Source: a phage. Taken from it: a stretch of DNA of 64,000 nucleotides. The notes beneath the pieces were generated by a model that saw only the letters and a list, made by a program, of their open reading frames with translations, was not told the DNA's origin and did not search any database. The stretch lies in NCBI GenBank assembly GCA_025830695.1, contig GCA_025830695.1_4111.2; one strand, 5' to 3'. The translations under genes and the position numbers were made by a program. Of the stretch, positions 29,791 through 49,904 are shown one piece after another (the stretch's first letter is position 1; every line of letters begins with the position of its first letter).

Positions 29791-29819
29791 TATTGAAAAT
29801 AAATGTGAGGTTGATGAAC

Positions 29820-32478: not shown

Positions 32479-32479
32479 T

Positions 32480-32722
32480 ATGAAAGTACTGACAGAACTA
32501 GAAATGTATCATAGATTTAATAAGTACTATCATTTACTTAAGCCTATACAGAGGATTAAATGTCCATTTGAAGAGAAACAGGTTTTAATCTATGAGCACA
32601 AGTTCTTTGTATCATTAGGTACAGATCAACAAGAGTACTATTTGACGTTGTACTTGATTACATTAATAGATTTAATTCACTATAAAACCAAACAAGCTAA
32701 TAAAGAGAAATATGAAAACTAA
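32480..32722 (+). CDS. family B small paralog (last of main array)
   Basis: track ORF trimmed to MKVLTELEMY; LGTDQQEYY. Confidence 0.55.
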   Translation: MKVLTELEMYHRFNKYYHLLKPIQRIKCPFEEKQVLIYEHKFFVSLGTDQQEYYLTLYLITLIDLIHYKTKQANKEKYEN

Positions 32723-33056
32723 TATACAACTCAAGGTATATAAATCATTTGAACATACATATATCAAAAGTAGTCTATGTAGAGATGTAATGGATTACAA
32801 GGGTAAACCATTCACAATTACCTATGATTCTTATGTTAGTGATTTATATATATCATTTGTTAATTACGAAAATAAAATATACAAGCACGTTGATATTAAA
32901 GATTTAAGTACTTTATCACCAGAGGAATACTTTCAGGAATCATTAGTATGGGATTTAGAGTTTCCTATGCCATTAGTACATAAGATGATAGTACTAATGA
33001 AAGAATCTAAACAGGAGCCTAATGGTGATTATGAAGAACACATCGTTGAGTATTAA
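32712..33056 (+). CDS. family C paralog (E-E-x-Y/F-F-Q-x-S-L/T-V-x-D motif family)
   Basis: LSTLSPEEYFQESLVWD. Confidence 0.6.
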   Translation: MKTNIQLKVYKSFEHTYIKSSLCRDVMDYKGKPFTITYDSYVSDLYISFVNYENKIYKHVDIKDLSTLSPEEYFQESLVWDLEFPMPLVHKMIVLMKESKQEPNGDYEEHIVEY

Positions 33057-33426
33057 GAGTACTGATAATATTAAGAGTTATACAAGCTCAAGTACTGTGA
33101 CAATCGAAGTAAATTCTATTAATGCTGGTAATGCATTAGATAAGTTCTTTATTGCTCAAGGGTACAGGAAAGATATTCATCAATATTGTTCAGTATATGG
33201 GGAGTACAATAGTACTGAAGATATAATTTATTGGTCAACACATCAAGATTATATAACTAAAATTGGCGTTCCAGATGTTAGTACTTTATCTGAAGAAGAA
33301 TACTTTCAGTACAGCTTAGTACATGATTTACCTATACCTTTAGGGTTAATTAAGGGTATGCAGGAAGAGGTTCATAAGCTTAAATCCATGAGTAAAGGTA
33401 CTTTCATTAGAACAGTGCAATACTAG
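33022..33426 (+). CDS. family C paralog (start uncertain)
   Basis: VSTLSEEEYFQYSLVHD. Confidence 0.55.
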   Translation: MVIMKNTSLSIKSTDNIKSYTSSSTVTIEVNSINAGNALDKFFIAQGYRKDIHQYCSVYGEYNSTEDIIYWSTHQDYITKIGVPDVSTLSEEEYFQYSLVHDLPIPLGLIKGMQEEVHKLKSMSKGTFIRTVQY

Positions 33427-33427
33427 C

Positions 33428-33456
33428 TTGACAGTACTTTTCATTACTGATATAGT
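33428..33456 (+). promoter_or_regulatory. internal promoter in family C array
   Basis: TTGACA 33428-33433, 17 bp, TATAGT 33451-33456. Confidence 0.5.
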
Positions 33457-33485
33457 ACACTAACGTTAATCATAGGGTAAAAATT

Positions 33486-33731
33486 ATGTTAAATTTTTTA
33501 AATTTCCTTATCGTCTTGTGTATTGTTCTTGGGATTGCACCATTTGTATTGTATTTCATGGATTCAGATGAAATGCAGAAGATGAATTGCACAAGGACAG
33601 GACAGAGTAGAGTAGAGACGATTCTTATGCCTGTTACGGTTATTGTTAACAACATGCCCATTACAAACATGGTCCCTACCCTAACGACAACGTACCAGTA
33701 CTCTTGTGCTGACGGAGAGAGGTGGAGATGA
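33486..33731 (+). CDS. small membrane protein (hydrophobic N-terminus), hypothetical
   Basis: MLNFLNFLIVLCIVLGIAPFVLYF; downstream of promoter 33428. Confidence 0.45.
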   Translation: MLNFLNFLIVLCIVLGIAPFVLYFMDSDEMQKMNCTRTGQSRVETILMPVTVIVNNMPITNMVPTLTTTYQYSCADGERWR

Positions 33732-34048
33732 AATTTAATATAGCAAAAACATCGAGTATATGTATTTTTGGTTATGCTGATGAGTTAGGTGATATTGACA
33801 TTCTTTTGTACAAAAAGGATGGTGTTATGCATTTCAAGTACCAGGATGAAGAGGCAGACAATTATCCTTTACCTAATTTAGTACAAATGCAGGAAGATGA
33901 ATTATTCCAGTACAGCTTAGTATACGACATTGATATTTGCACGATGCCAGTACTAATTAGTATTCAAAAAGTGATGCTCGATATGTATGATAAGCTAATA
34001 CAAGGTACATCAGGGAGAATCATTGAAATCGATATACAAGACAATTAA
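33722..34048 (+). CDS. family C paralog
   Basis: MQEDELFQYSLVYD. Confidence 0.6.
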   Translation: MEMKFNIAKTSSICIFGYADELGDIDILLYKKDGVMHFKYQDEEADNYPLPNLVQMQEDELFQYSLVYDIDICTMPVLISIQKVMLDMYDKLIQGTSGRIIEIDIQDN

Positions 34049-34241
34049 TCAAGAATGGAAGACCCAAAAGTACAGGGAATTCAACAGGAATTTTACAAAA
34101 GATGCATTGAATTTAAAAACAACAGAGTTTGATATGTTTATTTTTCTTGGAACACGTTCACAAGAACAATTTGTTCATTATTATATAAATTCGTTGCGAA
34201 CGGAGATAGTATGCAAAACACAGGGTATTATAAAAAGGTAA
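34023..34241 (+). CDS. family B paralog interleaved in family C array
   Basis: FLGTRSQEQFV. Confidence 0.55.
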   Translation: MKSIYKTINQEWKTQKYREFNRNFTKDALNLKTTEFDMFIFLGTRSQEQFVHYYINSLRTEIVCKTQGIIKR

Positions 34242-34477
34242 ACCAATATTTGTACGCTACAAAGTACAGGGATTTTTGTTTAAAGGGTGGTGATGAAGAT
34301 TTTTCTTTGCGATTATCAGAATTTAATCTGTTATTTTATCTTGGTACAAAAGAACAAGAAGAAATGGCACAGAAATTTATCAAGCACCTTTTACAAAAAA
34401 TTAATATGCAAATTTTGATGCTTAAGTTACAGAATGAGATAAATGAATATGAATCCAGAAATAGTTCAGGATCTTAA
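34211..34477 (+). CDS. family B paralog interleaved in family C array
   Basis: YLGTKEQEEMA. Confidence 0.55.
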   Translation: MQNTGYYKKVNQYLYATKYRDFCLKGGDEDFSLRLSEFNLLFYLGTKEQEEMAQKFIKHLLQKINMQILMLKLQNEINEYESRNSSGS

Positions 34478-34835
34478 AAAAGTAATATTTCTTTTGAATA
34501 CCAGAAGTGAATTGTATACAGAGTTAAAAGAGATTAATGCATTTTATCAGAATTTTGTAATCCAAGAGATCAGTGATTTAATTACAGATGCATTATTTGA
34601 ATTATCGGAGAAATACAAAGGTTCAGAGTTCAGTGTTAAGAATGTTATTCGTCCAAGTGCAAGGAAAATTATATTATCACATTTTACATTTGACAATAAA
34701 GATTTATTCAGTCATAATCCAAGTACAGCTTTATATTTTATTCCTGATTCAGACAAAAATCATCCTATTCATTACGGATGGATTTTGTCATATATAGTAC
34801 AAGGAAAGGAGTATCCTATTAAATGGAAAGATTAG
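34443..34835 (+). CDS. hypothetical protein (130 aa), no family motif
   Basis: ORF track. Confidence 0.5.
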   Translation: MNMNPEIVQDLKKVIFLLNTRSELYTELKEINAFYQNFVIQEISDLITDALFELSEKYKGSEFSVKNVIRPSARKIILSHFTFDNKDLFSHNPSTALYFIPDSDKNHPIHYGWILSYIVQGKEYPIKWKD

Positions 34836-34983
34836 GGCGATTAGATTATTACACAATTAATACAAATTATTTGTTGCGTAATATAAAATCCGATTACAAA
34901 ATATGGATAAAGAACAGAGATAGCATGTGTTATGAATTTTATTTAGATTATGCTATCAAACGATTTTTAAGAGAAGAACATTA

Positions 34984-35187
34984 ATGCAAAAGATTAATAC
35001 GATAACATTAAATGCATTACAGGATTCATTATTAGATAGTATTAAGATGTATTACAATATACATTTGAAGGGTGGTATTGATAATTACGATTATTATTTG
35101 AGTTTAATTACATTTGAGCACCTTTCAGTACAGGACAGGATTTTACATCCTACAAATCCTAGGTATCCATCGATAGGTAAATTATGA
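34984..35187 (+). CDS. hypothetical protein (67 aa)
   Basis: ORF track. Confidence 0.45.
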   Translation: MQKINTITLNALQDSLLDSIKMYYNIHLKGGIDNYDYYLSLITFEHLSVQDRILHPTNPRYPSIGKL

Positions 35188-35732
35188 ATGAGATAGAGTT
35201 ATTAGCACACAAGATAAGTACAATAATGCTTATCCTCAATAACAACCATCCTATATCGCATATAGATGGAATCCTGAGTCAGAGGACAGGTGGTAGTTTA
35301 TATTTGTCCATAAACGCAGATATCGCAAGGAAATACATTGATATTGATGTTGAAATCGAATATGATACAACGGGGATTGTTGATGTAGGTGCATTAATCA
35401 GTTCAAATCCAGTATCAGCATCCCCATTGACCAAAGATGTTAGTACAGGATTCGAAGGATATTTGTGGTACAATACCAATGATGATTATTTTATATATCA
35501 GCATTCCAATACAAATTATGATGAAGACAAATTTCAGTTCATAGACCCTTATGATGAAGCTGAAGTATTTCAAAAATCATTAATCACAAAACCGCATGAG
35601 ATGATGTATCTAATGTTATTCAGTACAATGCATTTGAATCCATTAATTAAAGGTTTAAAATTTTATATTCAATTAAATTTAGTCCATGTAGTTTATGATT
35701 TATTAATGCAAGGATATAGTTATGAAGTATAA
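35184..35732 (+). CDS. family C paralog
   Basis: DEAEVFQKSLI. Confidence 0.55.
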   Translation: MNEIELLAHKISTIMLILNNNHPISHIDGILSQRTGGSLYLSINADIARKYIDIDVEIEYDTTGIVDVGALISSNPVSASPLTKDVSTGFEGYLWYNTNDDYFIYQHSNTNYDEDKFQFIDPYDEAEVFQKSLITKPHEMMYLMLFSTMHLNPLIKGLKFYIQLNLVHVVYDLLMQGYSYEV

Positions 35733-36033
35733 AATGATGTATACCCCAGATATGATTTATGTTGAATTAGAAGATGATGACGATGGGTGGAATTTGATTT
35801 ATTCAAGAAGTTCAGGTTGGTACATGGCACATTTAAATGATTCGATAGTTACAGATTATTTTGTAGATTTCAATACATTATCCGATGAAGAATTGTTCCA
35901 ACAGCAATTAGTGATTGACACGGGTGGTTATGATGTCTTATTATTAAAAAAGATACAGAAAGCTGTTATTGATTTTAAGCCCATGATATGGCAAAGGAAA
36001 TATTATGACCTCGAAGTACCGTACCAGCAATGA
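35722..36033 (+). CDS. family C paralog
   Basis: LSDEELFQQQLVID. Confidence 0.6.
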   Translation: MKYKMMYTPDMIYVELEDDDDGWNLIYSRSSGWYMAHLNDSIVTDYFVDFNTLSDEELFQQQLVIDTGGYDVLLLKKIQKAVIDFKPMIWQRKYYDLEVPYQQ

Positions 36034-36571
36034 AATTCAGTACACCTACGCTAATGCAATCCTTATGGGACAAAAGTTAGCTTGTATTGTTGCATCCTTA
36101 TATAATGCCCAGAAATATCACAAGCGTCATTTCCACAAATGTATTGGTATTATTCCATCGAAGTACAATACATATATTGCGTGCACGAGTCATTTTGATA
36201 AACGATTCAATACACCAGATATACCAAATGCCCGTAGTGTTATTGGTCTTTTGGATTTCGCACCTGGTGCTGTTATTGGAAAGAATGATTTAGAGTACGC
36301 ATGGTATAATAAAAATTCCCCATTAGTAATGGTAACATATGATAAAGAAACGAACAAAACAATAGAGTACAATACATATAAATCAGAGGAAGAATTTTTC
36401 CAAGGTTCAATGCTTGTACCAGTGCGTTTGTTATTTTATAATGTCATAATGAGTACAGTACACAATAGTCCATTACACAAGAATCACAAAATTAATTTCA
36501 ATTTTTGTGCTTATGCGATTGATGGTGTGTATGAGTGTTTAATGGAGGTATTGAGTTATGAAGCTGAATAA
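36005..36571 (+). CDS. family C paralog
   Basis: SEEEFFQGSMLV. Confidence 0.55.
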   Translation: MTSKYRTSNEIQYTYANAILMGQKLACIVASLYNAQKYHKRHFHKCIGIIPSKYNTYIACTSHFDKRFNTPDIPNARSVIGLLDFAPGAVIGKNDLEYAWYNKNSPLVMVTYDKETNKTIEYNTYKSEEEFFQGSMLVPVRLLFYNVIMSTVHNSPLHKNHKINFNFCAYAIDGVYECLMEVLSYEAE

Positions 36572-36899
36572 TACATTTGATATTAATAAGTTAAGAGAAT
36601 GGTTTTATAGTATTGAAATTGAAGCCATCCCGTATCATAGATATGAACAATATAATTTAACCAGTATTGATATCCGTGAGTTGTACGCGTATTATCAAAG
36701 TGCATTAGAGATGCATAAGATATTTTTGAGTACAGATTTTGTTCTAAATTACAATTTTGAGGAATTTAATAATTATAATTTAGTACAGAAATATGTAGTA
36801 GCAAAGTACATGTACCTTCAAGGAATTACAAGTATAGTTGAATTTAATACAGTTCTTGCTTTAGTTGAGGTAATTTTATGCAGTACATGTATGATTTAG
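36558..36899 (+). CDS. hypothetical protein (113 aa), motif not evident
   Basis: ORF track. Confidence 0.45.
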   Translation: MKLNNTFDINKLREWFYSIEIEAIPYHRYEQYNLTSIDIRELYAYYQSALEMHKIFLSTDFVLNYNFEEFNNYNLVQKYVVAKYMYLQGITSIVEFNTVLALVEVILCSTCMI

Positions 36900-37384
36900 A
36901 GTTCAGCTTAGATGCTGCATTTAAATATGTTCACAAGATAGAAACAATATACAGTACATTATGTGCAATAAAATCAGTAACAGAAGAGCTTGATGTTGGT
37001 GAAAAATATCAGGTATGGAATAATACATTTTTAAATAAAGAACGTTGCTCTACGGGGTTTAATATTTTAACATTTAATCCCAGCAATTGTTACCCAGAGA
37101 AGCATGAACGTTATCCGAATGACGACATGTGGTTTGAGTACAAAGAAGATTGTGATATGTCGTTCATTGAAGTTCCTGATGATTTTAATGCACAAGATTT
37201 AACAGACGAGTGGTGGTTCCAGCAGAATTTAGTCCACGATGATATTGATTTATTTTTTTATGTAGTATTTAAAATGCTTTATCACAACAATATAGTACAA
37301 GATAGTGTATTTTTTTCATGTCTATATATTGATGATTTGTACAATGAAATTCAAATCAACATGCCCATAACGCCTGTATCGTAA
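36878..37384 (+). CDS. family C paralog
   Basis: TDEWWFQQNLVHD. Confidence 0.55.
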   Translation: MQYMYDLEFSLDAAFKYVHKIETIYSTLCAIKSVTEELDVGEKYQVWNNTFLNKERCSTGFNILTFNPSNCYPEKHERYPNDDMWFEYKEDCDMSFIEVPDDFNAQDLTDEWWFQQNLVHDDIDLFFYVVFKMLYHNNIVQDSVFFSCLYIDDLYNEIQINMPITPVS

Positions 37385-37409
37385 GATATGGGCTTTTTTC
37401 GTTTTGGTA

Positions 37410-37438
37410 TTGACATAGAAGACCAAAGCTGTTATCAT
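37410..37438 (+). promoter_or_regulatory. internal promoter in family C array
   Basis: TTGACA 37410-37415, 17 bp, TATCAT 37433-37438. Confidence 0.5.
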
Positions 37439-37466
37439 GTGTATTCATTTTAAAGGAGAACATATA

Positions 37467-37979
37467 GTGAGTTTCATAATCCCAAGTACATACGAAGATG
37501 CATCAAGTGCAGTTCATAAGATTCATTATATTTTTAATTTAATTATTAAATCTGCAAAAATTAAAATGTATGCACCTCTTGTGACAAATAATCGAAATGA
37601 AGAAATTTTTATTAGCACAGACAAAATTATTTTTCCATATTTCAATGAAGATAGATTGTGGTTCATACATTTAGCTGCATTACAAAAATATAAGATGTCA
37701 ATTCGTAATAATTTGGTTATACCGTTATATCATCCCGATATTGGAGAGGATGAGTATTTTCAGTACAGCACAGTACACCGCCATGAAGATATCTTTGCTG
37801 CTATGCTTATTGCTAAATTGAACACCGTTGATTTGGAGCAGTACAAATACAATAATAAATCATGTAAGATCATAATCCCTGCATTCATAGCTCTTTATGA
37901 TTATGTGGTGCATAACATAAAAGATGATACATATGCTTTCAATGAAGAGTATTTGGATTTTTTTAAGGAGAACATATGA
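37467..37979 (+). CDS. family C paralog (probable GTG start)
   Basis: SD AAGGAG then GTG 37467; GEDEYFQYSTVHRHED; track ORF 37437..37979. Confidence 0.5.
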   Translation: MSFIIPSTYEDASSAVHKIHYIFNLIIKSAKIKMYAPLVTNNRNEEIFISTDKIIFPYFNEDRLWFIHLAALQKYKMSIRNNLVIPLYHPDIGEDEYFQYSTVHRHEDIFAAMLIAKLNTVDLEQYKYNNKSCKIIIPAFIALYDYVVHNIKDDTYAFNEEYLDFFKENI

Positions 37980-38515
37980 GCAGTACAACAGTATCAAAAG
38001 TACAGAAAGCAATGTCATTCAATGAAATTGGTACATTTAAAGATAAGATCATTGATTGCCTTGAATACATGATTTGTAGTAATATCGAAAGTATCGAGAT
38101 ATTTAACAAGACAAATCGCTCTTACCATATGATGTACATTGCAAACAATAATGGTATCATTCCATTTATTTCGGATAGTACAATATGGTACGCATGTGAT
38201 ACGAAAAAAACCACAATAGGTTTACATTTATTTGAGACACATTATGATCTAATTATTCCTGAACATTGTATGCAAGAAGAAGAATATTTTCAAATGCAAT
38301 GTATACATTCACCATTAGTGTTGTTTAGTTTATATATTATACCTTATATCACCAAATGTGTTCATGACAATAAAGCTCCGTGGAATCATGAATTTGTATC
38401 GTTGAAGTTATTGTATAATGTATTAGTAGAATATTATGATTACAGGCACAATGGTACAATCAGTGATGTATGGGATTTTGAATCGCTAAGGGTGAAAACA
38501 TACACAGGTGAATGA
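37976..38515 (+). CDS. family C paralog
   Basis: QEEEYFQMQCIH; initiation region duplicates that of 37467 gene. Confidence 0.55.
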   Translation: MSSTTVSKVQKAMSFNEIGTFKDKIIDCLEYMICSNIESIEIFNKTNRSYHMMYIANNNGIIPFISDSTIWYACDTKKTTIGLHLFETHYDLIIPEHCMQEEEYFQMQCIHSPLVLFSLYIIPYITKCVHDNKAPWNHEFVSLKLLYNVLVEYYDYRHNGTISDVWDFESLRVKTYTGE

Positions 38516-39131
38516 TATGACCAGAATTAAAATGTATGATTTGATGCAGTACAGTAAAATTGCCATTCCAGTGCTTAATAAAGTGCTGGATGCATTCATT
38601 GCCAAATACCCTGAGAATTCAGTGTTATGTATTCCATTTAGTGTTCCAGATAAAGATGATATATTCCAAGTGAATGTCAGTACACGTGGTATTACATTAC
38701 AGCAGAAATACATGGATACGGAATATTATGGAATAAAGTTGGATTCAGTACAGGGTTCAAAATCAGCCTATGATTTTTTTGTTCCTAATAATATAGAGTC
38801 ATGGGAAACAAACATTTCAAAGAAAGATGAAAATGATGTTCCTATTAGTGGTGTGTTCAACAATAAAGTTTTTTATTATTACGAAACCGACAAATTCCCT
38901 GAAGAGTTATATTACAATTCAGAAATGAATGAAGATGTAGATGCATTCATGTTTCAATTATCTTTAGTACATGATATCATTGATGTTCAAGAGTTAAGAG
39001 CAGAAATCAATTTAGCTAAAGAGTTATCGGACATGCTGCCACCGTTTAGTATGCTTTTTTGTGAAGGTGGTTATTTTTCAAAAGAAGTGTTTGAACATTT
39101 CGTAGATGTTGTAAAAGGGTTGGATATATAG
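38508..39131 (+). CDS. family C paralog
   Basis: DVDAFMFQLSLVHD. Confidence 0.55.
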   Translation: MNDMTRIKMYDLMQYSKIAIPVLNKVLDAFIAKYPENSVLCIPFSVPDKDDIFQVNVSTRGITLQQKYMDTEYYGIKLDSVQGSKSAYDFFVPNNIESWETNISKKDENDVPISGVFNNKVFYYYETDKFPEELYYNSEMNEDVDAFMFQLSLVHDIIDVQELRAEINLAKELSDMLPPFSMLFCEGGYFSKEVFEHFVDVVKGLDI

Positions 39132-39132
39132 T

Positions 39133-39327
39133 ATGCTTACAGTTGATGTTAAACAAAAATACCGTAAGTTTGATTGGTTCACCGACAGCTTCCAGCTTGA
39201 ATTATTACATTTGAATATCTGTGAAACATTATGTGCAGAAACACAAGATGAATTTGATGATAGAGTGATGAACATAGTAATGCTTTCTTGCTTTAAACAT
39301 TTTGGTTATTTTTTCGGACAGAATTGA
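39133..39327 (+). CDS. hypothetical small protein (64 aa)
   Basis: ORF track. Confidence 0.4.
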   Translation: MLTVDVKQKYRKFDWFTDSFQLELLHLNICETLCAETQDEFDDRVMNIVMLSCFKHFGYFFGQN

Positions 39328-39335
39328 GGTAAAAA

Positions 39336-39851
39336 ATGCATCAACACAAGCATCATTCATATGATTTTGCAATTAACATTATGAAGTTCATTCGAGCGTT
39401 GGAGGATGGGAAGCTTAGTCATAAGTACACCAAAGTAGGTGACAATTGGTTCAGAAATGATGATGAGTTCAGAAGTCATAAGATTGTTTACAGCAATAAT
39501 TACAGTGCCAATTACCTACAAGATGTAGTGATGTGTTTTGAATACGTGTTGCAGTTCAGGGGTTCAATCCAGGATGAGTTGATGGAGCACATGTACATCC
39601 GATACCTTCCAATGCTCAAAGATGAAAATGTATTATTAAATTCAATATACCAACGAGTTCGTGAAATTGAGTGCAGGGATATATTAGATACAGAAGAATC
39701 GTATTTCCAGCAATCCCTGATTTATGCACCTGATTTATTACAGGTACATAATTTGTTTAATACATTACGTCAAAACATCAGTACAGACATATTTTTGTCA
39801 TTATCGAATTATGATACATTTGTCAAAGATTTAGAGGAAATAGGTTTATGA
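39336..39851 (+). CDS. family C paralog
   Basis: TEESYFQQSLIYAPD. Confidence 0.6.
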   Translation: MHQHKHHSYDFAINIMKFIRALEDGKLSHKYTKVGDNWFRNDDEFRSHKIVYSNNYSANYLQDVVMCFEYVLQFRGSIQDELMEHMYIRYLPMLKDENVLLNSIYQRVREIECRDILDTEESYFQQSLIYAPDLLQVHNLFNTLRQNISTDIFLSLSNYDTFVKDLEEIGL

Positions 39852-40192
39852 GTCGATTTTCGGTTTATATAGTAAACGTCAGTAAAGATGGTAGTTTAAT
39901 TGAATTTGATGTAGTTGATAACAATGATAATTCATATGGTATTAAGGTACAGGACAATGATGTACAGTTCAGTACAAGGACAAATTTTGAGAATCCAGTC
40001 CAAGTTCCGAATTTCATAGAAGATGAAGCTGCACGATTCCAATACGAAACGGCATATGACAATGTACATATGCATATTATTATGCAAACGAGTTTAGTTC
40101 AATTAGTTCCTTTGTTCAGACAAAATATATATGTACATGAAGTGTCGATTAATGGCATTCAAAGTTCCGTTTTGTTCGGTACAAATATGTAA
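39848..40192 (+). CDS. family C-like paralog (degenerate motif)
   Basis: DEAARFQYETAYD. Confidence 0.5.
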   Translation: MSRFSVYIVNVSKDGSLIEFDVVDNNDNSYGIKVQDNDVQFSTRTNFENPVQVPNFIEDEAARFQYETAYDNVHMHIIMQTSLVQLVPLFRQNIYVHEVSINGIQSSVLFGTNM

Positions 40193-40202
40193 GGAAAGTA
40201 CA

Positions 40203-40754
40203 ATGAGTTCAATGAGTTTATTAGATACATTAGAAAAAGACAGAAGTGCAATTAAGCGTTTAAAAGAGCAAGTACAAAAGATTGTATACAACGTTGATAA
40301 GTTTGAAGTCCCAGGAAGATTTGGTGATATTTCCCATACGGAGATCAAATCCCTTAAGTCAGATTTGTTGATTAAAAATAAAAATGGGTTGATTTTAGTT
40401 TTGAGTTCAGATATGATGGGGGCAACACATAGTTATAATGCAGTATCGGTGCGTTCAGAGTGTGAAGGTATATATCTATCACAGGGTTTCAATAGCGAGA
40501 CACAGGTTTGTTTTTGTGATGCAGTACATGACCCTATGAAGTTCACGAGAAGTGAAGCCCAAGCGTTATTAGAGCTATCAGACGAGAGTTTGTTTCAGTA
40601 CAGTACAATGTATGACAATGATAAGCTTCGTTGTATGTACGCTGTAAAGCATTATACACAGGAGTTTTCTGGATTTGCATACCTTTTAGTTAGAACCAAT
40701 ACCAGATATATTGATATGTTAGAAGATTACATCGATAAAGTTGTTAATGTATGA
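40203..40754 (+). CDS. family C paralog
   Basis: track ORF trimmed to MSSMSLLD (SD AAGGAAAG); SDESLFQYSTMYD. Confidence 0.55.
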   Translation: MSSMSLLDTLEKDRSAIKRLKEQVQKIVYNVDKFEVPGRFGDISHTEIKSLKSDLLIKNKNGLILVLSSDMMGATHSYNAVSVRSECEGIYLSQGFNSETQVCFCDAVHDPMKFTRSEAQALLELSDESLFQYSTMYDNDKLRCMYAVKHYTQEFSGFAYLLVRTNTRYIDMLEDYIDKVVNV

Positions 40755-40936
40755 TGTATGATTATGGGATGGGATAATGCTGATGAAAGAGTTATTTGAA
40801 GATCAGTTCAATACATATGTGGATAATATTCTTTATTCCAGCCGTGCTAGTCAACGAGGAAATCGTGCTTACAATATAGATTACCTATTAGTGGTGCTGA
40901 GTTCACAGTACACCAATGCGGTACAAAGGGTTTATT

Positions 40937-41146
40937 ATGAAAAGTGCAAGTAATAGTGATATTGCAAAGGAGAAGTTCAAGTGCAGTTTAGATTTTGGGT
41001 TAAATGATTTTCTGACATGCACAATGTACAGGAATGATGATTATGAGCAATCCGTAATTTCGTTGCACAGATATTTCGAAATAATTTACGCAAGATATCT
41101 TAGAAGGTTAGAGGGAATAGGGGATTGGAATTATGATTACGTTTGA
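40937..41146 (+). CDS. hypothetical small protein
   Basis: track ORF 40916..41146 trimmed to MKSASNSD; region 40760-41550 looks degraded. Confidence 0.3.
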   Translation: MKSASNSDIAKEKFKCSLDFGLNDFLTCTMYRNDDYEQSVISLHRYFEIIYARYLRRLEGIGDWNYDYV

Positions 41147-41552
41147 AGAGCCGGAAGTGGCATATTGCTTTAGTGTGAAAGGTTTTGAATTCATGATGGA
41201 TTCTATTTTGAAGGATACATATTTGGTTCAGATTGCAGTTCCAGATAATACAGATAATGCATTACAGTGAGTATTGAATATATACGAGAGGACGAGTCGA
41301 AGGCTTTGTGCAATGAAAAGGATTGAAGAAATCAAGCTTTCTATGCTGAATAAATAGAGACGTTTCATTTTGACAGGCCGCAGGGGGTCAAAAAAATTTC
41401 CGCTGAAAAACATGCTAAGGTATATGTTTAATATAAAGTTTTATATTGTGTTTTTCAGAGTACAGTTCATGTTTCTTGAAACAAAAAATACCCCGCCGCC
41501 GAACGTTCTCCTTATATTGGAGTTTACCTTATTAATTATAGTAGAGATTAAG

Positions 41553-41930
41553 ATGGAAATAAAATATAATGAATTTTGTGCAAGGACATGGATGTACACT
41601 GGTGAGTTAGTTACGCACTCTAACTTATACAAGGGTGATTTAAACTACGCTAGGGACAAGATTTTAAAGTACTGGAATGCTGACTTTTATTTGATGGATT
41701 TTAGTACTGGGTTTAGGGGTAAAGCAACCGAGATGTTGGACTATACAGTACTTGATGATGCTGCACTGTTTCAGGCGGCATTAGTATTTGATAAGAAGTA
41801 CATCTGTACATTAGAAGAGATGATTGAATTACAGCGTAGAATTAAATGTATTCACAGAGAATGTATAGACATCTGGTGCAGTACTGGTGAAGATGATTTT
41901 TGTAATCATTTCAATCTAGGGGAAGAGTGA
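41553..41930 (+). CDS. family C paralog
   Basis: track ORF trimmed to MEIKYNEF (SD GAGATTAAG); LDDAALFQAALVFDKKY. Confidence 0.55.
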   Translation: MEIKYNEFCARTWMYTGELVTHSNLYKGDLNYARDKILKYWNADFYLMDFSTGFRGKATEMLDYTVLDDAALFQAALVFDKKYICTLEEMIELQRRIKCIHRECIDIWCSTGEDDFCNHFNLGEE

Positions 41931-42091
41931 TGGAATTTGATTTTTTAATATCAGTACATTCTTTTAAGCACAGTTATCAGTACTTTTGTAATTTAAACAA
42001 AGGTGATTTGATTATGGATACAGATACAGAGGCTGTATACAGTTCTAATATTCTGTACAAATTCAGTACTAATCTGAAGGAGATTTTATGA
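41930..42091 (+). pseudogene. truncated duplicate of the N-terminus of 42459..42815
   Basis: 53-codon ORF MEFDFLISVHSFKHSYQYFCNLNKGDL... matches the first 27 aa of the 42459 gene then diverges and stops. Confidence 0.5.
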
Positions 42092-42459
42092 AAAAAGAAA
42101 TTAGAATTCAATTCGGTATGAGGAAAAAAGAGGTCATCTGTACACTGAATCATGCGGTCGTGGAAAGCCTTGGTGGTGCATTACAAAAATTCTCCCATTT
42201 TGTTCTTGTACTATATGAAAATGGGTCTTTTAAAATCTTCACATATGATGATTCAAAAAATTACCGTAATGATTTTGTAAATCTGACAGTACTGTCAGAA
42301 GAGGAATTCTTTCAGGAAAGTACTGTCTGGAATTTACCAGGAGCACCAATTGAATACGTCCGTGCTACACAGGCAGAAATGATCAAAGTAATGCAGAACT
42401 ATCCAGAAGATTATATGACTAAGTTTCCTGAATCTATTTATGTAGAGGTTGAGTACTGA
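42088..42459 (+). CDS. family C paralog
   Basis: LSEEEFFQESTVWN. Confidence 0.6.
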   Translation: MKKEIRIQFGMRKKEVICTLNHAVVESLGGALQKFSHFVLVLYENGSFKIFTYDDSKNYRNDFVNLTVLSEEEFFQESTVWNLPGAPIEYVRATQAEMIKVMQNYPEDYMTKFPESIYVEVEY

Positions 42460-42815
42460 TGGAATTTGATTTTTTAATATCAGTACATACTTTCAAGCAC
42501 AGTTATCAGTACTTTTGTAATTTAAACAAAGGTGATTTAATGCACAGTGCAAATGAGTATATTCATTACACTCAGGGTAAATTTACATTCATTGATTACA
42601 GTTCATTACAGTATCCACACCAAGATATGCCGGACTATACATTAATGGATACCGCAGAACTATTCCAAGAATCATTAGTATTTGATAAGAAGTACTTGTG
42701 TACATTTGAAGAAGTTATTGCAATACAAAATGAAATGAAAGAGTATGCTGCTTTGCATAAACCCAATGCAAGTATTAATCAAGAATACAAATTCAATTTA
42801 GGAATTCAAGAATGA
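42459..42815 (+). CDS. family C paralog
   Basis: MDTAELFQESLVFDKKY. Confidence 0.6.
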   Translation: MEFDFLISVHTFKHSYQYFCNLNKGDLMHSANEYIHYTQGKFTFIDYSSLQYPHQDMPDYTLMDTAELFQESLVFDKKYLCTFEEVIAIQNEMKEYAALHKPNASINQEYKFNLGIQE

Positions 42816-43171
42816 CATATGATTATTCTATGTACTATTATAAGTTACCTAAAGGATGGGACTTGTGCTGTAATCTTATTAAGGGCGACTCGGAACATGA
42901 GTTGAGTTTATATATGCATTACAAAGATTCTTGTTTTAAATTTATTCATGTATCACATGACGACTATGACTATGAATCTGAGAGTCTTATAGATTATACA
43001 GTACTGGACGATGGTGAACTATTTCAGGCTGCATTAGTGTTTGATAAGAATAAGTACTCCTGTACATTTGAAGAAATGGTTTCTTTGCAAAATGAAATGA
43101 AGAGATTTGAAAAAGAAAACGTATTTAATCCATCCCCATCAAGAACGAATAATTATTATTTCAATATATGA
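42812..43171 (+). CDS. family C paralog
   Basis: LDDGELFQAALVFDKNKY. Confidence 0.6.
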   Translation: MTYDYSMYYYKLPKGWDLCCNLIKGDSEHELSLYMHYKDSCFKFIHVSHDDYDYESESLIDYTVLDDGELFQAALVFDKNKYSCTFEEMVSLQNEMKRFEKENVFNPSPSRTNNYYFNI

Positions 43172-43180
43172 GATTATAAA

Positions 43181-43672
43181 ATGACATTACAGAGTTCATT
43201 GGAAAAAGCAAAGAAGATTCATGAGTACATGAATATGGCAAAAGAAGGTTCAGTTTACGGTGTTTTCAAAGACACAAGTACTCAATATTATGTACCGGAT
43301 AACCTCCTTTATAATGACTGCTCAGATACAGAAACGTGCGTACTGGATACAGAAACGTGCATACTAGATACCGACCCTAATGATTATGAATGCTTCATTA
43401 ATATGCATAATGAGTACATGGTCTATATTAATGATACAGATACCATCAACAGTACTGACAGCGATTCCAATGACATTATAATTCCGAGTGAAGTACTGGA
43501 AGGTCCGTGGGATAGTGAAGAGTATTACTTCCAACAAAGTACTGTATATGATAATGAAGTACTTGATGTTATTATAATTATGTGGTACTTTAAAAGTATT
43601 GGTTCTGGGAACTTCTATTTCGATTACAAATACGTAAAGAAAACTGTAGATAACGGTATTAACAGGGGTTGA
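43181..43672 (+). CDS. family C paralog (subfamily MSLQSALEKAKKIHEYM...GPWDSEEYYFQ...MWYFKS)
   Basis: first of five consecutive close paralogs. Confidence 0.65.
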   Translation: MTLQSSLEKAKKIHEYMNMAKEGSVYGVFKDTSTQYYVPDNLLYNDCSDTETCVLDTETCILDTDPNDYECFINMHNEYMVYINDTDTINSTDSDSNDIIIPSEVLEGPWDSEEYYFQQSTVYDNEVLDVIIIMWYFKSIGSGNFYFDYKYVKKTVDNGINRG

Positions 43673-43673
43673 A

Positions 43674-44144
43674 ATGAGTTTAGAAAGAGCATTAGAGATT
43701 GCGAAGTTAATTGATTTATGCAGCAAAGAAATTGTAGCAAATTGTCTTAATGGATATCTATTCAAGGAAGGTAAATCATATTGTCGAATGAGATACGATG
43801 ACAGTAGTGAGTACATTCACATGTATGAAGAAAACTTAGATTCTTCTGAAACAACACTCAATGGGTGTGATGTTAATTTGGAAGATAATTACATGTACTT
43901 CTGTCGTGATGCTGATATTTTAATACAAGATTCTGACATTATATCTGGTGCAGCAGAGAAACATCTTCCGTATTCAGTACTGGATAATGACTGGGGAAGT
44001 GAAGAGTACTACTTCCAGCAGAATACTATCTACGAGGAAGATGTACTTGACAAGCTTGTCATTCTGTGGTACTTTAATAATACAGATTGTCCTAGCTTCT
44101 ATTTGGACTTGGATCTACTACGAGTTATTAAAGAGGATATATGA
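43674..44144 (+). CDS. family C paralog (same subfamily)
   Basis: WGSEEYYFQQNTIYEED. Confidence 0.65.
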   Translation: MSLERALEIAKLIDLCSKEIVANCLNGYLFKEGKSYCRMRYDDSSEYIHMYEENLDSSETTLNGCDVNLEDNYMYFCRDADILIQDSDIISGAAEKHLPYSVLDNDWGSEEYYFQQNTIYEEDVLDKLVILWYFNNTDCPSFYLDLDLLRVIKEDI

Positions 44145-44584
44145 GTTTAGCAAGTGCACTTGAACTAGCACACAGAATACATCACTTCCACGATAACATA
44201 AAAAGTGGTTTCTATGGTGATAAAGTAAGTGCATTTGGTAATGAGTATTATCTATCAGGTATAAAGACATACTCTGATGATATTTTACTTATGGGTCATG
44301 ATAAAGACAATACTATACAGTACTCTTCATGTAGTCAATATACTAATTTTTTTGTATATATTCCAGGTACTAAGATTACTTTTGACACAACAAATACACC
44401 TGTTGACTTCGGGGTACTTGATGGCCCGTGGGGTACTGAAGAGTATTACTTCCAACAGAGTCTCATTTTTAACCAAGAAAATCTTGATTCCTTGGTTGTG
44501 TTGTGGTACTTTAAGGAATTGAATTTTGAACCATTCTTTCTTGACTGGGGAGCATGTGAATATTTAAGTACAGGGGATTTGTAA
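44141..44584 (+). CDS. family C paralog (same subfamily)
   Basis: WGTEEYYFQQSLIFNQ. Confidence 0.65.
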   Translation: MSLASALELAHRIHHFHDNIKSGFYGDKVSAFGNEYYLSGIKTYSDDILLMGHDKDNTIQYSSCSQYTNFFVYIPGTKITFDTTNTPVDFGVLDGPWGTEEYYFQQSLIFNQENLDSLVVLWYFKELNFEPFFLDWGACEYLSTGDL

Positions 44585-45072
44585 TGTCATTACAAAGTGC
44601 ATTGAAAGAAGCAAAGAAGATTCATGAGTACATGATTATGGTACAGGAAGGTTCAGTACCAGGTGTATATAAAACATCTGATACTGAATTTTTTGTAAAA
44701 GACCGTGACGATTATGACGAGTCCGAGATATGTGCAGAAACATTAGTACTGCACACTGATACTGGTGACAGTGATAACTGTGAATATCATATGTACAATC
44801 AGTACATTAGTTATTGCCGTAATGAAGATATTACCATCTACAACACAGATAGTGATGCTGATGACACTATCATTCCTTATTCAGTACTGGAAGGTCCGTG
44901 GGATAGTGAAGAGTATTACTTCCAGAATACTACGTTGTACAATGAAGAAGAATTAGATGTTATTGTAATTATGTGGTATTTCAAAAGTATTGACTCCAGT
45001 AGTTTCTATTTTGATTATGAATATGTAGAGAATACTGTAGGAGAAGGTAATGTCATTACAAAGTGCTCTTGA
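44584..45072 (+). CDS. family C paralog (same subfamily)
   Basis: WDSEEYYFQNTTLYNEE. Confidence 0.65.
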   Translation: MSLQSALKEAKKIHEYMIMVQEGSVPGVYKTSDTEFFVKDRDDYDESEICAETLVLHTDTGDSDNCEYHMYNQYISYCRNEDITIYNTDSDADDTIIPYSVLEGPWDSEEYYFQNTTLYNEEELDVIVIMWYFKSIDSSSFYFDYEYVENTVGEGNVITKCS

Positions 45073-45502
45073 AAAAGCAAAAGAACTACATGGATACTTT
45101 GACGATATAAAGGCAGGAAAGTTCAAAGAAGTGTACAAAGCCGAGAACGGCAACTACTACAAAGATGAAATGTATAATAACTCCGTGGGTGTAAGGGTTA
45201 TTCTTGGGTTGAATTCCAATAGTCCTATATCGTTTTCTGAATACAATAGAGATGCAGAATTTATTAGTTATGTTGAAAATGGTAGCATTCGTTTTATTAA
45301 TCGCAAAAAACCATTAATTTTGAATTATGAAGTACTGGATGGTCCGTGGGATAGTGAAGAGTATTACTTCCAAAACAGTACTGTTTACGATGATGAAGTA
45401 CTTGAAGCATTAGTTATTATGTGGTACTTAAAGAGTGTTAACTGTCCTCGATTTTATTTGGATTTCGAAGAACTTCGTAAAGATCCAGAAGGTATAGAAT
45501 GA
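45050..45502 (+). CDS. family C paralog (same subfamily)
   Basis: WDSEEYYFQNSTVYDDE. Confidence 0.65.
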   Translation: MSLQSALEKAKELHGYFDDIKAGKFKEVYKAENGNYYKDEMYNNSVGVRVILGLNSNSPISFSEYNRDAEFISYVENGSIRFINRKKPLILNYEVLDGPWDSEEYYFQNSTVYDDEVLEALVIMWYLKSVNCPRFYLDFEELRKDPEGIE

Positions 45503-45813
45503 AAAACTTATTCAGTGTTCAGTACGTCCCTGGTGAAATTAGTTTATTGTATCTGTTTGATCATGATAATTCATTATTACTAGTAGTAAAGAAATGCCAA
45601 GCTAGTTCGTTTGTTGAATACATTCACGATAGTGAATATATACCTGATTTTTTAGAGTGTGATTATTACGATGAACATGAATCATTTATTTTCCAGGAAT
45701 CGCTCGTATGGGATAAATCGATCAACTTCTTTACGTTAATTGAATTACAAAAGCAGGTGAAGTATCATTGGAATTACTTAATCACACAGGATTACATTGA
45801 GATAGAAATATAA
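45499..45813 (+). CDS. family C paralog
   Basis: HESFIFQESLVWD. Confidence 0.55.
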   Translation: MKNLFSVQYVPGEISLLYLFDHDNSLLLVVKKCQASSFVEYIHDSEYIPDFLECDYYDEHESFIFQESLVWDKSINFFTLIELQKQVKYHWNYLITQDYIEIEI

Positions 45814-46121
45814 TGACTAAAAATGAATTTGATTCACTTTGTACGGTTTATAATTCATTGACAGAAATACCTGACTTTATTAATTACATTTCAGCTTTAA
45901 ATCAAATTATGCATAGTTTTGAACAATCGTTTGAAGAGAAATATGCTGGTAGAAAAGTTCTATGTCATATGTCAATGTACTTAGGAGATGGTGAGCCTTA
46001 CACTACAAGTACTACATGTGAAATAAAAAAATATAATATATTATTGGGGACAATAGAATTCACAGTATCCAATGGTGGTAGTTATATGTACTTTAGAGAT
46101 GGAGTGGTTGAATTATTATGA
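45813..46121 (+). CDS. hypothetical protein (102 aa), motif not evident
   Basis: ORF track. Confidence 0.45.
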   Translation: MTKNEFDSLCTVYNSLTEIPDFINYISALNQIMHSFEQSFEEKYAGRKVLCHMSMYLGDGEPYTTSTTCEIKKYNILLGTIEFTVSNGGSYMYFRDGVVELL

Positions 46122-46567
46122 GTTACGAAAGTGCAATCAAGAAAGCAAATGATATTCTACGCGTCGTTAAATTCTTCAAAGAAAATCCTGAATACTTAGC
46201 TGATGAAAACCATGATCACGATGAGAGATTGAGACGAAAAATTGTCGCTTTATTTGACACTAATGCGGATAATTATAGTCTAATTGAGTTAGCATACGAT
46301 TATATTTCATTGAACCGAAACGGCAATATAGTTAATATAGAAAGACATGCAACTGAAGAATCTTTTAAAATTTCAGATATTTTATCCCTGAGTACTGAAG
46401 AAGGGTACTTCCAGGGTAGTACTGTTTATGAACAAGGAACACTTGACAATCTATGCACATTCAGTGTAATATATCAGAAATCTGTACTAGATGTATTTTA
46501 TCTTGACACTGCTGAACTGGATACACTAACCAATTTTGTTACTACTGAAGAGGCTACATTCGAGTGA
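46118..46567 (+). CDS. family C paralog
   Basis: STEEGYFQGSTVYEQ. Confidence 0.6.
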   Translation: MSYESAIKKANDILRVVKFFKENPEYLADENHDHDERLRRKIVALFDTNADNYSLIELAYDYISLNRNGNIVNIERHATEESFKISDILSLSTEEGYFQGSTVYEQGTLDNLCTFSVIYQKSVLDVFYLDTAELDTLTNFVTTEEATFE

Positions 46568-47100
46568 TGAAAGTTAACATCAATGACTTTGATGCATTAC
46601 AAGATTTATCAAAAAAGATTCGCACCATTGTACCAGTACTCAAAAAATGCAGTACTGGTTTAATCGATCCTAGTACTGTTGTTAATGAGAAGTACAATTT
46701 TCATTATGTATTACAGGGTACTGGGGCATTCCAGAAGTGTGAGGTGCGTGAGACACACGTAATTGATACATCATTGTTTTCTATTGGTGCACCTGTGTCG
46801 AATAATACTATTTTCCTAGACAACGCTGGAAATATTCAACAATTAACATTTAAGAAAAGGAAAAAGAACAATAACATTGGTGTGTATGCGATGAAGTGGG
46901 GTCAACCTGATTTGAAGCGTGAAATTCACATCCCTAAGTACAATTACAATGCATTTGACGAACAGTGTTTTCAACTATCGTGTACTGACCCTGACTATGC
47001 TATCATTCAGTTCTATATGGAATTGCAGATTGCATTTAACAGTAATTTGTATATTAACTTATTGGCGATGAACATCGATGAAGTATTCAAAAACATTTAA
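46564..47100 (+). CDS. family C-like paralog (degenerate motif)
   Basis: FDEQCFQLSCTD. Confidence 0.5.
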   Translation: MMKVNINDFDALQDLSKKIRTIVPVLKKCSTGLIDPSTVVNEKYNFHYVLQGTGAFQKCEVRETHVIDTSLFSIGAPVSNNTIFLDNAGNIQQLTFKKRKKNNNIGVYAMKWGQPDLKREIHIPKYNYNAFDEQCFQLSCTDPDYAIIQFYMELQIAFNSNLYINLLAMNIDEVFKNI

Positions 47101-47296
47101 TCGAATTGAATACATGAGAACTGTGAGTGCAGTGTGGGACATATGGTTCACTACTAAACCAAAAATGGATTACCATGACTTTAAGCTCTTGTTCTTCGTT
47201 GGCTCTAACAAACAGGATGTTGCAATGAAGGGTTATATTCAGCACTTACAGGAACTAATCCAGAAGAGAATATATGAAAATAATAGACCAAAATGA
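47078..47296 (+). CDS. family B paralog interleaved in family C array
   Basis: FVGSNKQDVAM. Confidence 0.5.
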   Translation: MKYSKTFNRIEYMRTVSAVWDIWFTTKPKMDYHDFKLLFFVGSNKQDVAMKGYIQHLQELIQKRIYENNRPK

Positions 47297-47465
47297 TATT
47301 GCTAAACTATTCAATATATATTCTACTAGAATGATGCAAACAGACTCATATAGTACTGAATTCAAAGAGTTGAAAGTCCTGATGTACTTGGGAACCCAAT
47401 ATCAGGAACAAGTTATTTTGGAATATATTAATTCGCTGAAGAAGGATATCCGTTATGTACGATGA
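47274..47465 (+). CDS. family B paralog interleaved in family C array
   Basis: YLGTQYQEQVI. Confidence 0.55.
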   Translation: MKIIDQNDIAKLFNIYSTRMMQTDSYSTEFKELKVLMYLGTQYQEQVILEYINSLKKDIRYVR

Positions 47466-48015
47466 TTTAGATCTTGCGTTTGAACGTATGGTAATTTTAA
47501 TGCAATGTGCAGAAATGCATGAAACAATCCGTCGCACCAAAGGGATTGAATATACAAGTAAACTATTCTCATACGAAAGTCGTCGAGGGATGGATCATTT
47601 TTACTGCACTGATTGTTCAAAGTTTTCAGTACTGAAATATTATCATCCTACTGTTTCCAATAATAGTTTAATATCCACATATGACGGTGATCTGTTTAGT
47701 GTAATGTATGACACATTACATCCATCAATTTCAATCTATAAAGATTGCGATAGTAGTTTATCGTATATAATTGAAGATTACTTATCTCCTAATACTGAAG
47801 AGAATATTTTTCAGAACAGTGTGTTGCATGATGAATTAAGTATAAAATGCATCTATATGTTCAATAAGTTAAAAGAGTACGCCGATAATAATTACTTAAT
47901 TGATAAGTTAGCAGTATTGTCTGTTTCCGTTTTTAATACAAATGACATTGATATGAAATACTATAATGAGATTTGTAAAGTACATCATATGTATAAGGAA
48001 TTACTATGTTATTAA
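47455..48015 (+). CDS. family C paralog
   Basis: TEENIFQNSVLHD. Confidence 0.55.
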   Translation: MYDDLDLAFERMVILMQCAEMHETIRRTKGIEYTSKLFSYESRRGMDHFYCTDCSKFSVLKYYHPTVSNNSLISTYDGDLFSVMYDTLHPSISIYKDCDSSLSYIIEDYLSPNTEENIFQNSVLHDELSIKCIYMFNKLKEYADNNYLIDKLAVLSVSVFNTNDIDMKYYNEICKVHHMYKELLCY

Positions 48016-48608
48016 ATGCAAATAAATGTTGTAGTGCAGATGTGCATTTGTTTTTTAAGAAATTAGTAAATGATATTATCTATATGCAAGAAATCATTTA
48101 TCACAAAAGAATGGACTTAGAAAAAGCATTAGTTCAGTTCTCTTTTATGCTGGATGGGATTATTACTCTAGATGGTGATGGATTGCGTATAGCATTTGAC
48201 GGTAATTCAAATAGGGTTTTCTATTGGATGAATAATAAATTATGTTCCTCAATTTGCCGCACTTTTTATAACCCTATTTCGGACTTATATCAATTGGTGT
48301 ATTCTAAAGGTGCAGTAGAAGCATCATATGGTGATAGTTATGCCCTAGGAAAGAGTATTCCATATATGCAATCATTTGATATTGAATTAGTCAGTACTGA
48401 TGAAGATGCAATGTTCACAAATGATTTAACGATGGAACGTGAATCTGCAATGAGATATATTACAAATTCTATGCATACATTCTTTCAACGAGTAGAATTT
48501 GATAATGTATATATAGCAAATGTAAATATTTTTACTGACCTGTGTCAGTACTTGAGAAGTGTTTGTGATTTTGATGAAAGCTATTGTAAGCTTTATACTG
48601 AGGTATAA
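48006..48608 (+). CDS. family C-like paralog (degenerate motif)
   Basis: DEDAMFTNDLTME. Confidence 0.45.
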   Translation: MLLNANKCCSADVHLFFKKLVNDIIYMQEIIYHKRMDLEKALVQFSFMLDGIITLDGDGLRIAFDGNSNRVFYWMNNKLCSSICRTFYNPISDLYQLVYSKGAVEASYGDSYALGKSIPYMQSFDIELVSTDEDAMFTNDLTMERESAMRYITNSMHTFFQRVEFDNVYIANVNIFTDLCQYLRSVCDFDESYCKLYTEV

Positions 48609-48613
48609 AACAA

Positions 48614-49301: not shown

Positions 49302-49308
49302 GGTTTAT

Positions 49309-49894: not shown

Positions 49895-49904
49895 TTATAA
49901 CACA

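Follow-up and report, generated by a model that had tools for sequence, protein, structure and literature searches.

We analyzed a stretch of 64,000 nucleotides (nt; here called the window) from a phage contig (GCA_025830695.1_4111.2 of NCBI GenBank assembly GCA_025830695.1), in which three arrays of small paralogous genes, families A, B and C, are not pure: four family B genes lie inside the family C block, and one open reading frame (ORF) within the family A array, ORF 3913, carries a family C-type core. An initial annotation had concluded that the arrays exchange modules and do not evolve as isolated blocks. The mixed composition of the arrays is borne out here; exchange is not, since neither cross-array DNA matches nor chimeric genes were detected. 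Most probably, the layout consists of old, fixed positions that were produced by tandem duplication, divergence, loss and rare relocation, with no continuing exchange of modules between the arrays. Judged by their sequences, the four small ORFs are true but divergent B genes in two fixed slots, and comparison with relatives shows the layout to be old and syntenically conserved.

Gene families of the window

The window comprises the terminal-repeat region of an Asteriusvirus (121Q-type) jumbo coliphage. The 14-kb region that holds the interleaved genes (33428-47465) is 99.4% identical to Escherichia phage vB_EcoM_G17 (G17) and 94-99% identical to SHEFM2K, phAPEC6, 121Q and PBECO4, all of which are Asteriusvirus jumbo coliphages of ~350 kb; all genes under this match carry the label "hypothetical protein" in the records of the relatives. 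The window ORFs are almost all on the + strand, and G+C content is 30-39%. Families were defined by BLASTP clustering and hidden Markov models (HMMs), and are arranged as follows (aa, amino acids):

2293..6515, + strand: family A array, in two parts flanking ORF 3913; 18 genes of ~60 aa (phrog_11711); A HMM E-values 1e-14 to 1e-24
3913..4584, + strand: X-family gene in the A array (ORF 3913), 223 aa; phrog_29152 at 7e-155
26342..32722, + strand: main family B array, 28 genes of ~70 aa plus one degenerate copy at 28442
32712..61045, + strand: family C block; 45 genes have the core, and 23 other ORFs, four of them B genes, lie among them

Family B proteins share an LGTxxQE motif and belong to phrog_4148, while family C proteins (100-200 aa) are distributed over phrog_9317, 12674, 13866 and others and have the core [LM]-[ST]-E-E-x-[YLF]-F-Q-x-S-[LT]-[VIL]. 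A fourth family, X (phrog_29152), is represented here by ORF 3913. PHROGs separates A, B, C and X independently, every matched PHROG being annotated "unknown function", and no functional annotation for any of the four was obtained from Pfam, NCBIfam or PHROGs. Together, these three or four paralogue families occupy ~39 kb, roughly 11% of a 350-kb genome, and nearest paralogues are mostly neighbours.

Family B genes inside the family C block

Besides ~19 unrelated ORFs, the C block holds four ORFs at two sites that had been assigned to family B:

34023..34241, + strand: B gene, site 1, 72 aa, TTG start; B HMM E 1.6e-11; phrog_4148 7e-9
34211..34477, + strand: B gene, site 1, 88 aa; B HMM E 1.6e-7
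47078..47296, + strand: B gene, site 2, 72 aa; B HMM E 4.2e-7
47274..47465, + strand: B gene, site 2, 63 aa; B HMM E 4.8e-12; phrog_4148 1e-16

The B HMM was built from the 28 main-array genes (26342-32722) only, without these candidates, and the non-B ORFs of the window gave E-values of at least 0.39, with the in-array copy 28442 (0.0035) as the sole exception. In BLASTP single-linkage clustering, the four interleaved ORFs fall in the 32-member B cluster, and the two that were compared with PHROGs (34023 and 47274) match phrog_4148, as does a main-array gene. The alignment is full-length, lengths fall within the 60-90 aa taken as typical of the family, and the columns of the G-T-x-x-Q...L signature are kept: Q52 and L63 are invariant across all 32 B sequences, and the near-invariant T49 is present in three of the four interleaved genes, with S in 47078. 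The assignment of all four ORFs to family B is thus upheld by main-array HMM, clustering and signature, and they can be regarded as genuine family members. Identity to array members is only ~20%. The nearest relative of 34023 is the adjoining 34211 (33% identity; 71% bootstrap), so it is a local tandem duplicate; a GGGAGA Shine-Dalgarno-like sequence lies upstream of it. Intact versions of the four ORFs are present in G17, 121Q and PBECO4; the 121Q record annotates them as gp345, 346, 379 and 380. Full-length orthologues of 47274 were found in 33 Asteriusvirus records (81-100% identity), and the interleaved B genes, which are single-copy and position-conserved, occur in all 35 Asteriusvirus records that have family B.

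Array order in related phages

Comparison of array order in related isolates, which the initial annotation had proposed as a check, showed that the interleaving is syntenic in G17, 121Q, PBECO4 and, at orthologue identities of only 30-60%, JNE01, which points to fixed positions and not to exchange. The family maps of G17, 121Q and PBECO4 equal that of the window (...B-array, CC-C, BB, - - - CCC..., CC, BB, C...). JNE01 is a divergent Asteriusvirus, with array orthologues 27-70% identical, and it too has B genes inside its C block. The genes next to the two B sites are as follows:

33722..34048, + strand: C gene directly upstream of B site 1; reciprocal best hit JNE01 J23502, 50% identity
46564..47100, + strand: weak C gene directly upstream of B site 2; core HMM 18.5 bits; reciprocal best hit J33268
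47455..48015, + strand: C gene directly downstream of B site 2; reciprocal best hit J34502

At site 1, the window genes 33486, 33722 (C) and 34211 (B) are collinear reciprocal best hits of J23027, J23502 and J23788, and at site 2 the same is true of 46564, 47274 (B) and 47455 with J33268, J33819 and J34502. Both B slots therefore predate the split between the window and JNE01 lineages. Gene content at the slots has changed since site 1 holds two genes in the window and one in JNE01, and the reciprocal best hit of 47078, J27649 (84% bootstrap), is located at a third slot in JNE01; hence 47078 was either relocated or differentially lost. This slot change is the only sign of movement. The number of B genes is 28 in G17, 22 in 121Q, 18 in JNE01 and 0 in EJP2. 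The B/C border of JNE01 reads B-C-B, and JNE01 keeps the A...X...A layout of the window. As for EJP2, no A or B gene was detectable in the ~80 kb examined, and a C block is present. It has three tandem X genes and, in addition, EJP02_511 (TEEEIFQQSLV), which opens the + strand genes beyond the minus-strand RCC1-like block, where the window has its A array.

The layout probably arose by birth-and-death evolution. Unequal recombination between adjacent paralogues during concatemer replication would generate tandem duplicates, which would diverge fast and sometimes be lost, while one B gene would have changed its slot or been differentially lost. The X gene is probably at least as old as the A array, which would have expanded on both sides of it, since EJP2, without A and B, has a lone X gene at the A locus.

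ORF 3913 and the family C-type core

ORF 3913 had been described as lying inside the A array and carrying a family C-type core, and this description holds: profile comparison of X with C gave P 2e-6, and divergent orthologues read the canonical FQ. The core is located as follows:

4438..4473, + strand: EEELFMYSTVID core in ORF 3913, residues 176-187

By our criterion, the core of family C is [ST]EEx[YLF]FQxS[LT][VIL] at about 40-60 aa from the C-terminus. ORF 3913 reads LSEEELFMYSTVID, 37 aa from its C-terminal end, with M where family C has Q. The stretch EEELFMYSTVID is invariant, and the Q-to-M change accordingly fixed, in 21 homologues down to 61% identity, the word-indexed homologue search reaching sequences of at least 61% identity; more distant orthologues were obtained by tblastn against phage records. 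Among these, the JNE01 orthologue (39% identity) reads YSEDEMFQWSTII, with SEDEMFQWSTII and its FQ at the core site, while the EJP2 orthologues read LTDEKMFQYSTMI, LTEAELFQYTIM and YTEEEIFQQSLVL, with FQ at the core sites TDEKMFQYSTMI and TEEEIFQQSLVL. The X orthologues that read FQ are 26-39% identical to ORF 3913, and the M in LFMYSTV is therefore a clade-specific Q-to-M change.

With a 26-column HMM of the family C core motif, ORF 3913 was the top non-family match among 588 six-frame segments (12.6 bits, E 0.003; next non-family segment, 6.7 bits). A broad full-length C HMM matched it at E 0.0011, the only match outside 32.7-61 kb among 168 ORFs; it was not matched by our first, narrower full-length C HMM (E 1.9). 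The hhalign comparison of the X family with C gave a probability of 88.6-89.3% over 18-35 columns, and five control pairs of families gave P-values of 0.004-0.42. ORF 3913 matched no C-type PHROG at E <= 0.01, only phrog_29152, and did not match the family A profile at E <= 10. It is basic (isoelectric point [pI] 8.8), versus a median of 5.0 for family C. A fusion of an A-type N-terminus with a C-type C-terminus was rejected (hhalign against A, P 0.41).

Could the motif have arisen by convergence or chance, perhaps driven by a palindromic DNA octamer, CAGTACTG, over the S-T-V codons? The significant X-C alignment spans 18-35 columns only, X is basic and placed in a separate PHROG, and the octamer does sit within motif codons, with one copy in the core of ORF 3913 that reads Y-S-T-V. 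Nevertheless, the X-C P-value of 2e-6 stands against at least 0.004 for the controls, the motif is kept in X orthologues at 26-39% identity whose residues (WSTII, YSTMI, QSLVL) cannot all encode the octamer, the distance from motif to C-terminus is similar in X and family C, and the full-length C HMM aligns over residues 62-191. We therefore regard convergence as quite unlikely, and ORF 3913 is best seen as distantly related to the C superfamily or, at minimum, as having its core helix; it is treated here as a fourth family. Its arrival in the A array by a move from the C block is improbable, because ORF 3913 has its own family (phrog_29152) and a lone EJP2 member occupies the same locus.

Proposed exchange between the arrays and other explanations

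A DNA self-comparison of the window (self-BLASTN), the other check that had been suggested, returned 134 off-diagonal matches, none of them between arrays. By compartment, there were seven A-A, six B-B, 13 C-C and 107 repeat-repeat matches, each within one compartment. The interleaved B genes share a single 31-nt DNA match with the main B array, and no ORF in the window was matched by two family HMMs. We rejected the idea that the two BB sites stem from one duplicated [C, B, B, C...] segment, there being no collinear paralogy after the sites.

If the three arrays kept exchanging genes or modules by recombination or gene conversion, the interleaved copies would be recent migrants. Mixed arrays are what this would predict, the 47078 orthologue occupies another slot in JNE01, and the C paralogues 48614 and 42459 are 51% identical though 6 kb apart. 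However, the missing cross-array DNA matches, the low identity of the interleaved B genes to array members, the filling of the same slots in JNE01 at 30-57% orthologue identity and the lack of chimeras all contradict it. Ongoing exchange is thus largely refuted, and we consider it very unlikely. A different view takes the interleaved B genes as ancestral seeds, one of which would later have been amplified into the 28-gene array where the terminal repeat ends. The single-copy, position-conserved state of the interleaved genes, the variation in main-array copy number (18 to 28) and the B-C-B order at the JNE01 B/C border would fit such a history, but the B tree does not resolve and EJP2, which lacks both types of B gene, leaves no outgroup for polarity. 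We hold this view to be possible but rather doubtful.

The arrays also differ sharply from their surroundings in divergence. Median orthologue identity between JNE01 and the window is 42% for A, 39% for B and 33% for C, versus 95% for the repeat region (41 ORFs). Nucleotide identity to JNE01, at ~91%, ends at 2286 (seven bases short of the first A gene), resumes at 6569, runs at 87-97% to 26391 and is then gone until ~58.8 kb; at the first A gene and at the first B gene alike, it is lost over a distance of no more than about 50 bp. Two readings fit: very fast evolution of the arrays themselves, or replacement of whole arrays through recombination in conserved flanks. That low array identity reflects whole arrays swapped between phage lineages by homologous recombination in the flanks is a serious possibility, although we would put it at somewhat less than even. 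It would account for the sharp breaks at 2286/2293 and near 26391 and for the discrete identity classes among relatives, both of X (94-99%, 75-85%, 39%, 26%) and of 47274 (96-100%, 81-87%, 57%). Gene order within the arrays is nonetheless collinear and similarity returns only gradually on the right side. Swapping of this kind is compatible with old, fixed positions and not opposed to them.

Several points weigh against our reading as a whole. Beyond near-identical strains, only four relatives were mapped. In the neighbor-joining tree (bootstrap of BLOSUM distances), the seven interleaved B genes group together, but with only 9% bootstrap; the sequences are ~70 aa long and near saturation, so that their status as a distinct old subfamily rests mainly on synteny. 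EJP2 may have lost A and B, so that X predating A is not proven. The homology of X and C is seen over roughly 18-35 columns only, between a basic and an acidic family and without a C PHROG match, and the AlphaFold2 (AF2) model of ORF 3913 is too poor for fold comparison (predicted local distance difference test [pLDDT] 49, predicted template modeling score [pTM] 0.34), its element order looking similar at low confidence. The sharp divergence borders could mean whole-array replacement between phages in place of fast evolution in situ. Moreover, promoter-like sites are no commoner than in shuffled sequence (107 vs 112), and function is wholly inferred.

Family C and further members of the families

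Family C is small, with 167 matching clusters only (E <= 0.001) in a search of 1.84 billion proteins, and its core was found in 147 of 150 database representatives. The proteins are acidic (median pI 5.0, net charge -9). The AF2 model of gene 45050, computed with 40 paralogues (pLDDT 80, pTM 0.77), begins with an N-terminal helix and a beta block; the core follows as a short helix, in the most confident segment, and after it comes a long helix. Family C showed no match to any known fold. That the core, EExYFQ(G/S), might be a TEV/3C-like protease cleavage site is unlikely, as it forms a capped helix in the model (pLDDT 94-98); a 3C-like protease was not searched for. One subcluster differs in size between relatives:

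43181..45502, + strand: five tandem C paralogues, 30-55% identical to each other; one JNE01 orthologue, J29448

Five genes here versus the single J29448 indicate a lineage-specific tandem amplification. The 54-aa ORF at 41927-42091 (74 aa in 121Q) shares 71% identity with residues 1-38 of the C gene 42459-42815; it is a truncated N-terminal C copy and probably a remnant of unequal recombination. In the main B array, the 86-aa ORF at 28442-28702 has TGTDKTAIA in place of LGTNYQE and a weak match to the B profile (E 0.0035); from its sequence, we take it to be a degenerate or strongly diverged B copy. The top database match of the B profile (E 2e-30) is protein P0173 from a metagenome contig, which at 154 aa has double the usual length and suggests two B units fused in one ORF.

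Terminal repeat and genome ends

6769..26274, no strand assigned: equivalent of the ~20-kb direct terminal repeat, from alignment with fEgEco12, between the A array and the B array

The direct terminal repeat of fEgEco12 measures 20,993 bp and has been verified by restriction digests (PMC13070987). In our alignment, fEgEco12 position 1 corresponds to window position 6769 and the end of its repeat to ~26274. In the record of vB_Ec-M-J, the repeat is annotated at 1-21525, and it ends after the orthologue of 25913-26122 but before the first B gene. Because these repeat coordinates map onto 6769-26274, the window is a collapsed representation of a unique right end (RCC1-like genes and A array), the repeat, and a unique left end (B array and C block). 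The arrays thus adjoin both edges of the repeat, with 254 bp between the end of the A array and the repeat and 68 bp between the repeat and the start of the B array.

The repeat is present once in the source record of the window. It has megablast matches in 179 phage records, some of them outside Asteriusvirus, and contains 107 internal DNA repeats. Its left part belongs to an ORF-poor segment of ~1.9 kb (6520-8440) that holds the equivalent of the physical left genome end and several repeat families: GTAATCA repeats, ATTTTGGGCGTA in four copies, GGCTAAACGGCTAGA units at 7570-7670 and 11 copies of CAGTACTG. Transfer RNA and Rfam scans gave no match in this segment and found nothing in the whole window.

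On the other side of the A array, the minus-strand gene at 988-2208 encodes a 406-aa protein. This protein resembles EJP2 genes with the annotation "GTPase regulator" (RCC1-like), shares 95.5% identity with the JNE01 counterpart and belongs to an opposite-strand block of ~10-14 paralogues. Virion proteins of ~41 kDa named "DNA condensation protein" (gp549, gp551, gp003-010) have been reported from phAPEC6, at the record ends and adjoining the A array (PMC7247149). Position and size, taken without an alignment, suggest that these proteins belong to the RCC1-like block. The A array, despite its + strand genes, has a negative GC skew (-0.16 to -0.20, in 1-6000), and the skew is positive in other + strand coding sequence.

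Expression and products

Three promoter-like features were noted next to the arrays:

26314..26341, + strand: promoter-like site where the terminal repeat joins unique sequence, immediately ahead of the first B gene
33428..33456, + strand: promoter-like site (TTGACA-17-TATAGT with TG), located in the gap that precedes the unit with B site 1; consensus match only
37372..37438, + strand: terminator-like hairpin (37372-37393) followed by a promoter-like site (37410-37438); G17 annotates a terminator here

Genes are tightly packed, with junctions often at -4 nt (4-nt start/stop overlaps), and the arrays may be transcribed as operons from sigma-70-like promoters. Since promoter-like sites are not enriched over shuffled sequence, the near-consensus sigma-70-like ones at 26314, 33428 and 37410 serve only as leads. 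The first gene after site 33428 is an 81-aa hydrophobic ORF (33486-33731; grand average of hydropathy +0.38), the product of which may be a membrane protein; its identity to the JNE01 orthologue is 61%, above that of its B and C neighbours.

The octamer CAGTACTG occurs in 59 copies in the window (661-63637), versus 0.75 expected and a maximum of three in 100 shuffles. It contains AGTACT, the ScaI site. Copies are densest at 6750-8357 and 9400-26000, and there is none between 31609 and 41879. Many copies occupy promoter spacers of near-consensus sites, immediately upstream of the -10 box, for example at 7148, 9905, 11265, 15160, 15389, 17537, 24953 and, in front of the A array, 2251. Where the octamer falls in C and X genes, it is read as S-T-V or [ST]-V-L codons. 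This distribution suggests that it might be an operator for a regulator of the repeat-region promoters.

By mass spectrometry of phAPEC6 virions, no product of the genes between gp348 and gp548 was detected, and the RCC1-like "DNA condensation" neighbours were (PMC7247149). On this basis, the array products are taken not to be virion proteins. They might tentatively be viewed as early host-takeover or anti-defence effectors under diversifying pressure; searches of the literature on anti-defence and on Asteriusvirus found nothing relevant. In a more far-reaching proposal, which we regard as speculative and unlikely to hold in full, the C superfamily (45 genes and X) would have an undescribed fold with an invariant F-Q core, restricted to RaK2-like jumbo phages, and would form a ~28-kb hyper-divergent early arsenal beside the terminal repeat. 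The fixed-slot B proteins would be its conserved partners or regulators, and together they would make up a diversified host-takeover/anti-defence system whose variants are maintained or swapped between lineages.

The interleaving itself seems to be an unexceptional and ancient consequence of genes duplicating and diverging, and not a new exchange mechanism. The window shows the growth and diversification of a 350-kb phage genome, with private families exactly at both terminal-repeat junctions. The array identities of 33-42% versus 95% mark these families as candidates for host-interaction or anti-defence functions and as targets for deletion and expression studies. The more interesting question is the role of ~39 kb of hyper-divergent, repeat-flanking, non-virion genes.

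Comparison with known systems

The genome type studied by Hua et al. (2017, mBio; PMC5646251) is, as far as the relevant passage goes, the same as that of the window, and its array is very probably the same B array; it was read there, as here, as tandem duplication enlarging jumbo phage genomes. About 10% paralogous genes have been given for RaK2 in the corresponding passage of its description (PMC3622015). Within these passages, the subject takes up one line, without a family definition, interleaved B genes, an X/C link, a terminal-repeat position or divergence (PMC5646251, PMC3622015). In the literature that we searched, we found no description of the families or of B genes interleaved with C, nor of a link between X and C, of arrays placed at the repeat junctions or of their contrast in divergence.

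In poxvirus "genomic accordions" (K3L amplification) and in the multigene families of large DNA viruses, tandem copy number changes in non-structural genes near the termini. The arrays resemble accordions in that copy number differs between relatives here too (B 28/22/18/0; C subcluster 5 vs 1). They differ in that the copies are old: paralogues have at most 55% amino-acid identity and little DNA similarity, their DNA matches being 67-75% identical, and do not look like recent high-identity amplifications.

Among the PHROGs, strong matches to window genes come from phrog_4148 (B), phrog_11711 (A), phrog_9317/12674/13866 (C) and phrog_29152 (X). PHROGs holds X apart from the C families, whereas the profile comparison made here links X and C through the core.

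The terminal-repeat host-takeover modules of SPO1 and T5 are similar in having many small genes of unknown function at long terminal repeats, with RpoD-like promoters. In the RaK2-like phage CBB, a suspected early host-takeover region with RpoD-like promoters has been reported beside the repeat (PMC5259590). The modules of SPO1, T5 and CBB, however, consist mostly of unrelated single genes, whereas the arrays described here, as known from sequence, comprise three or four paralogue families over ~39 kb.

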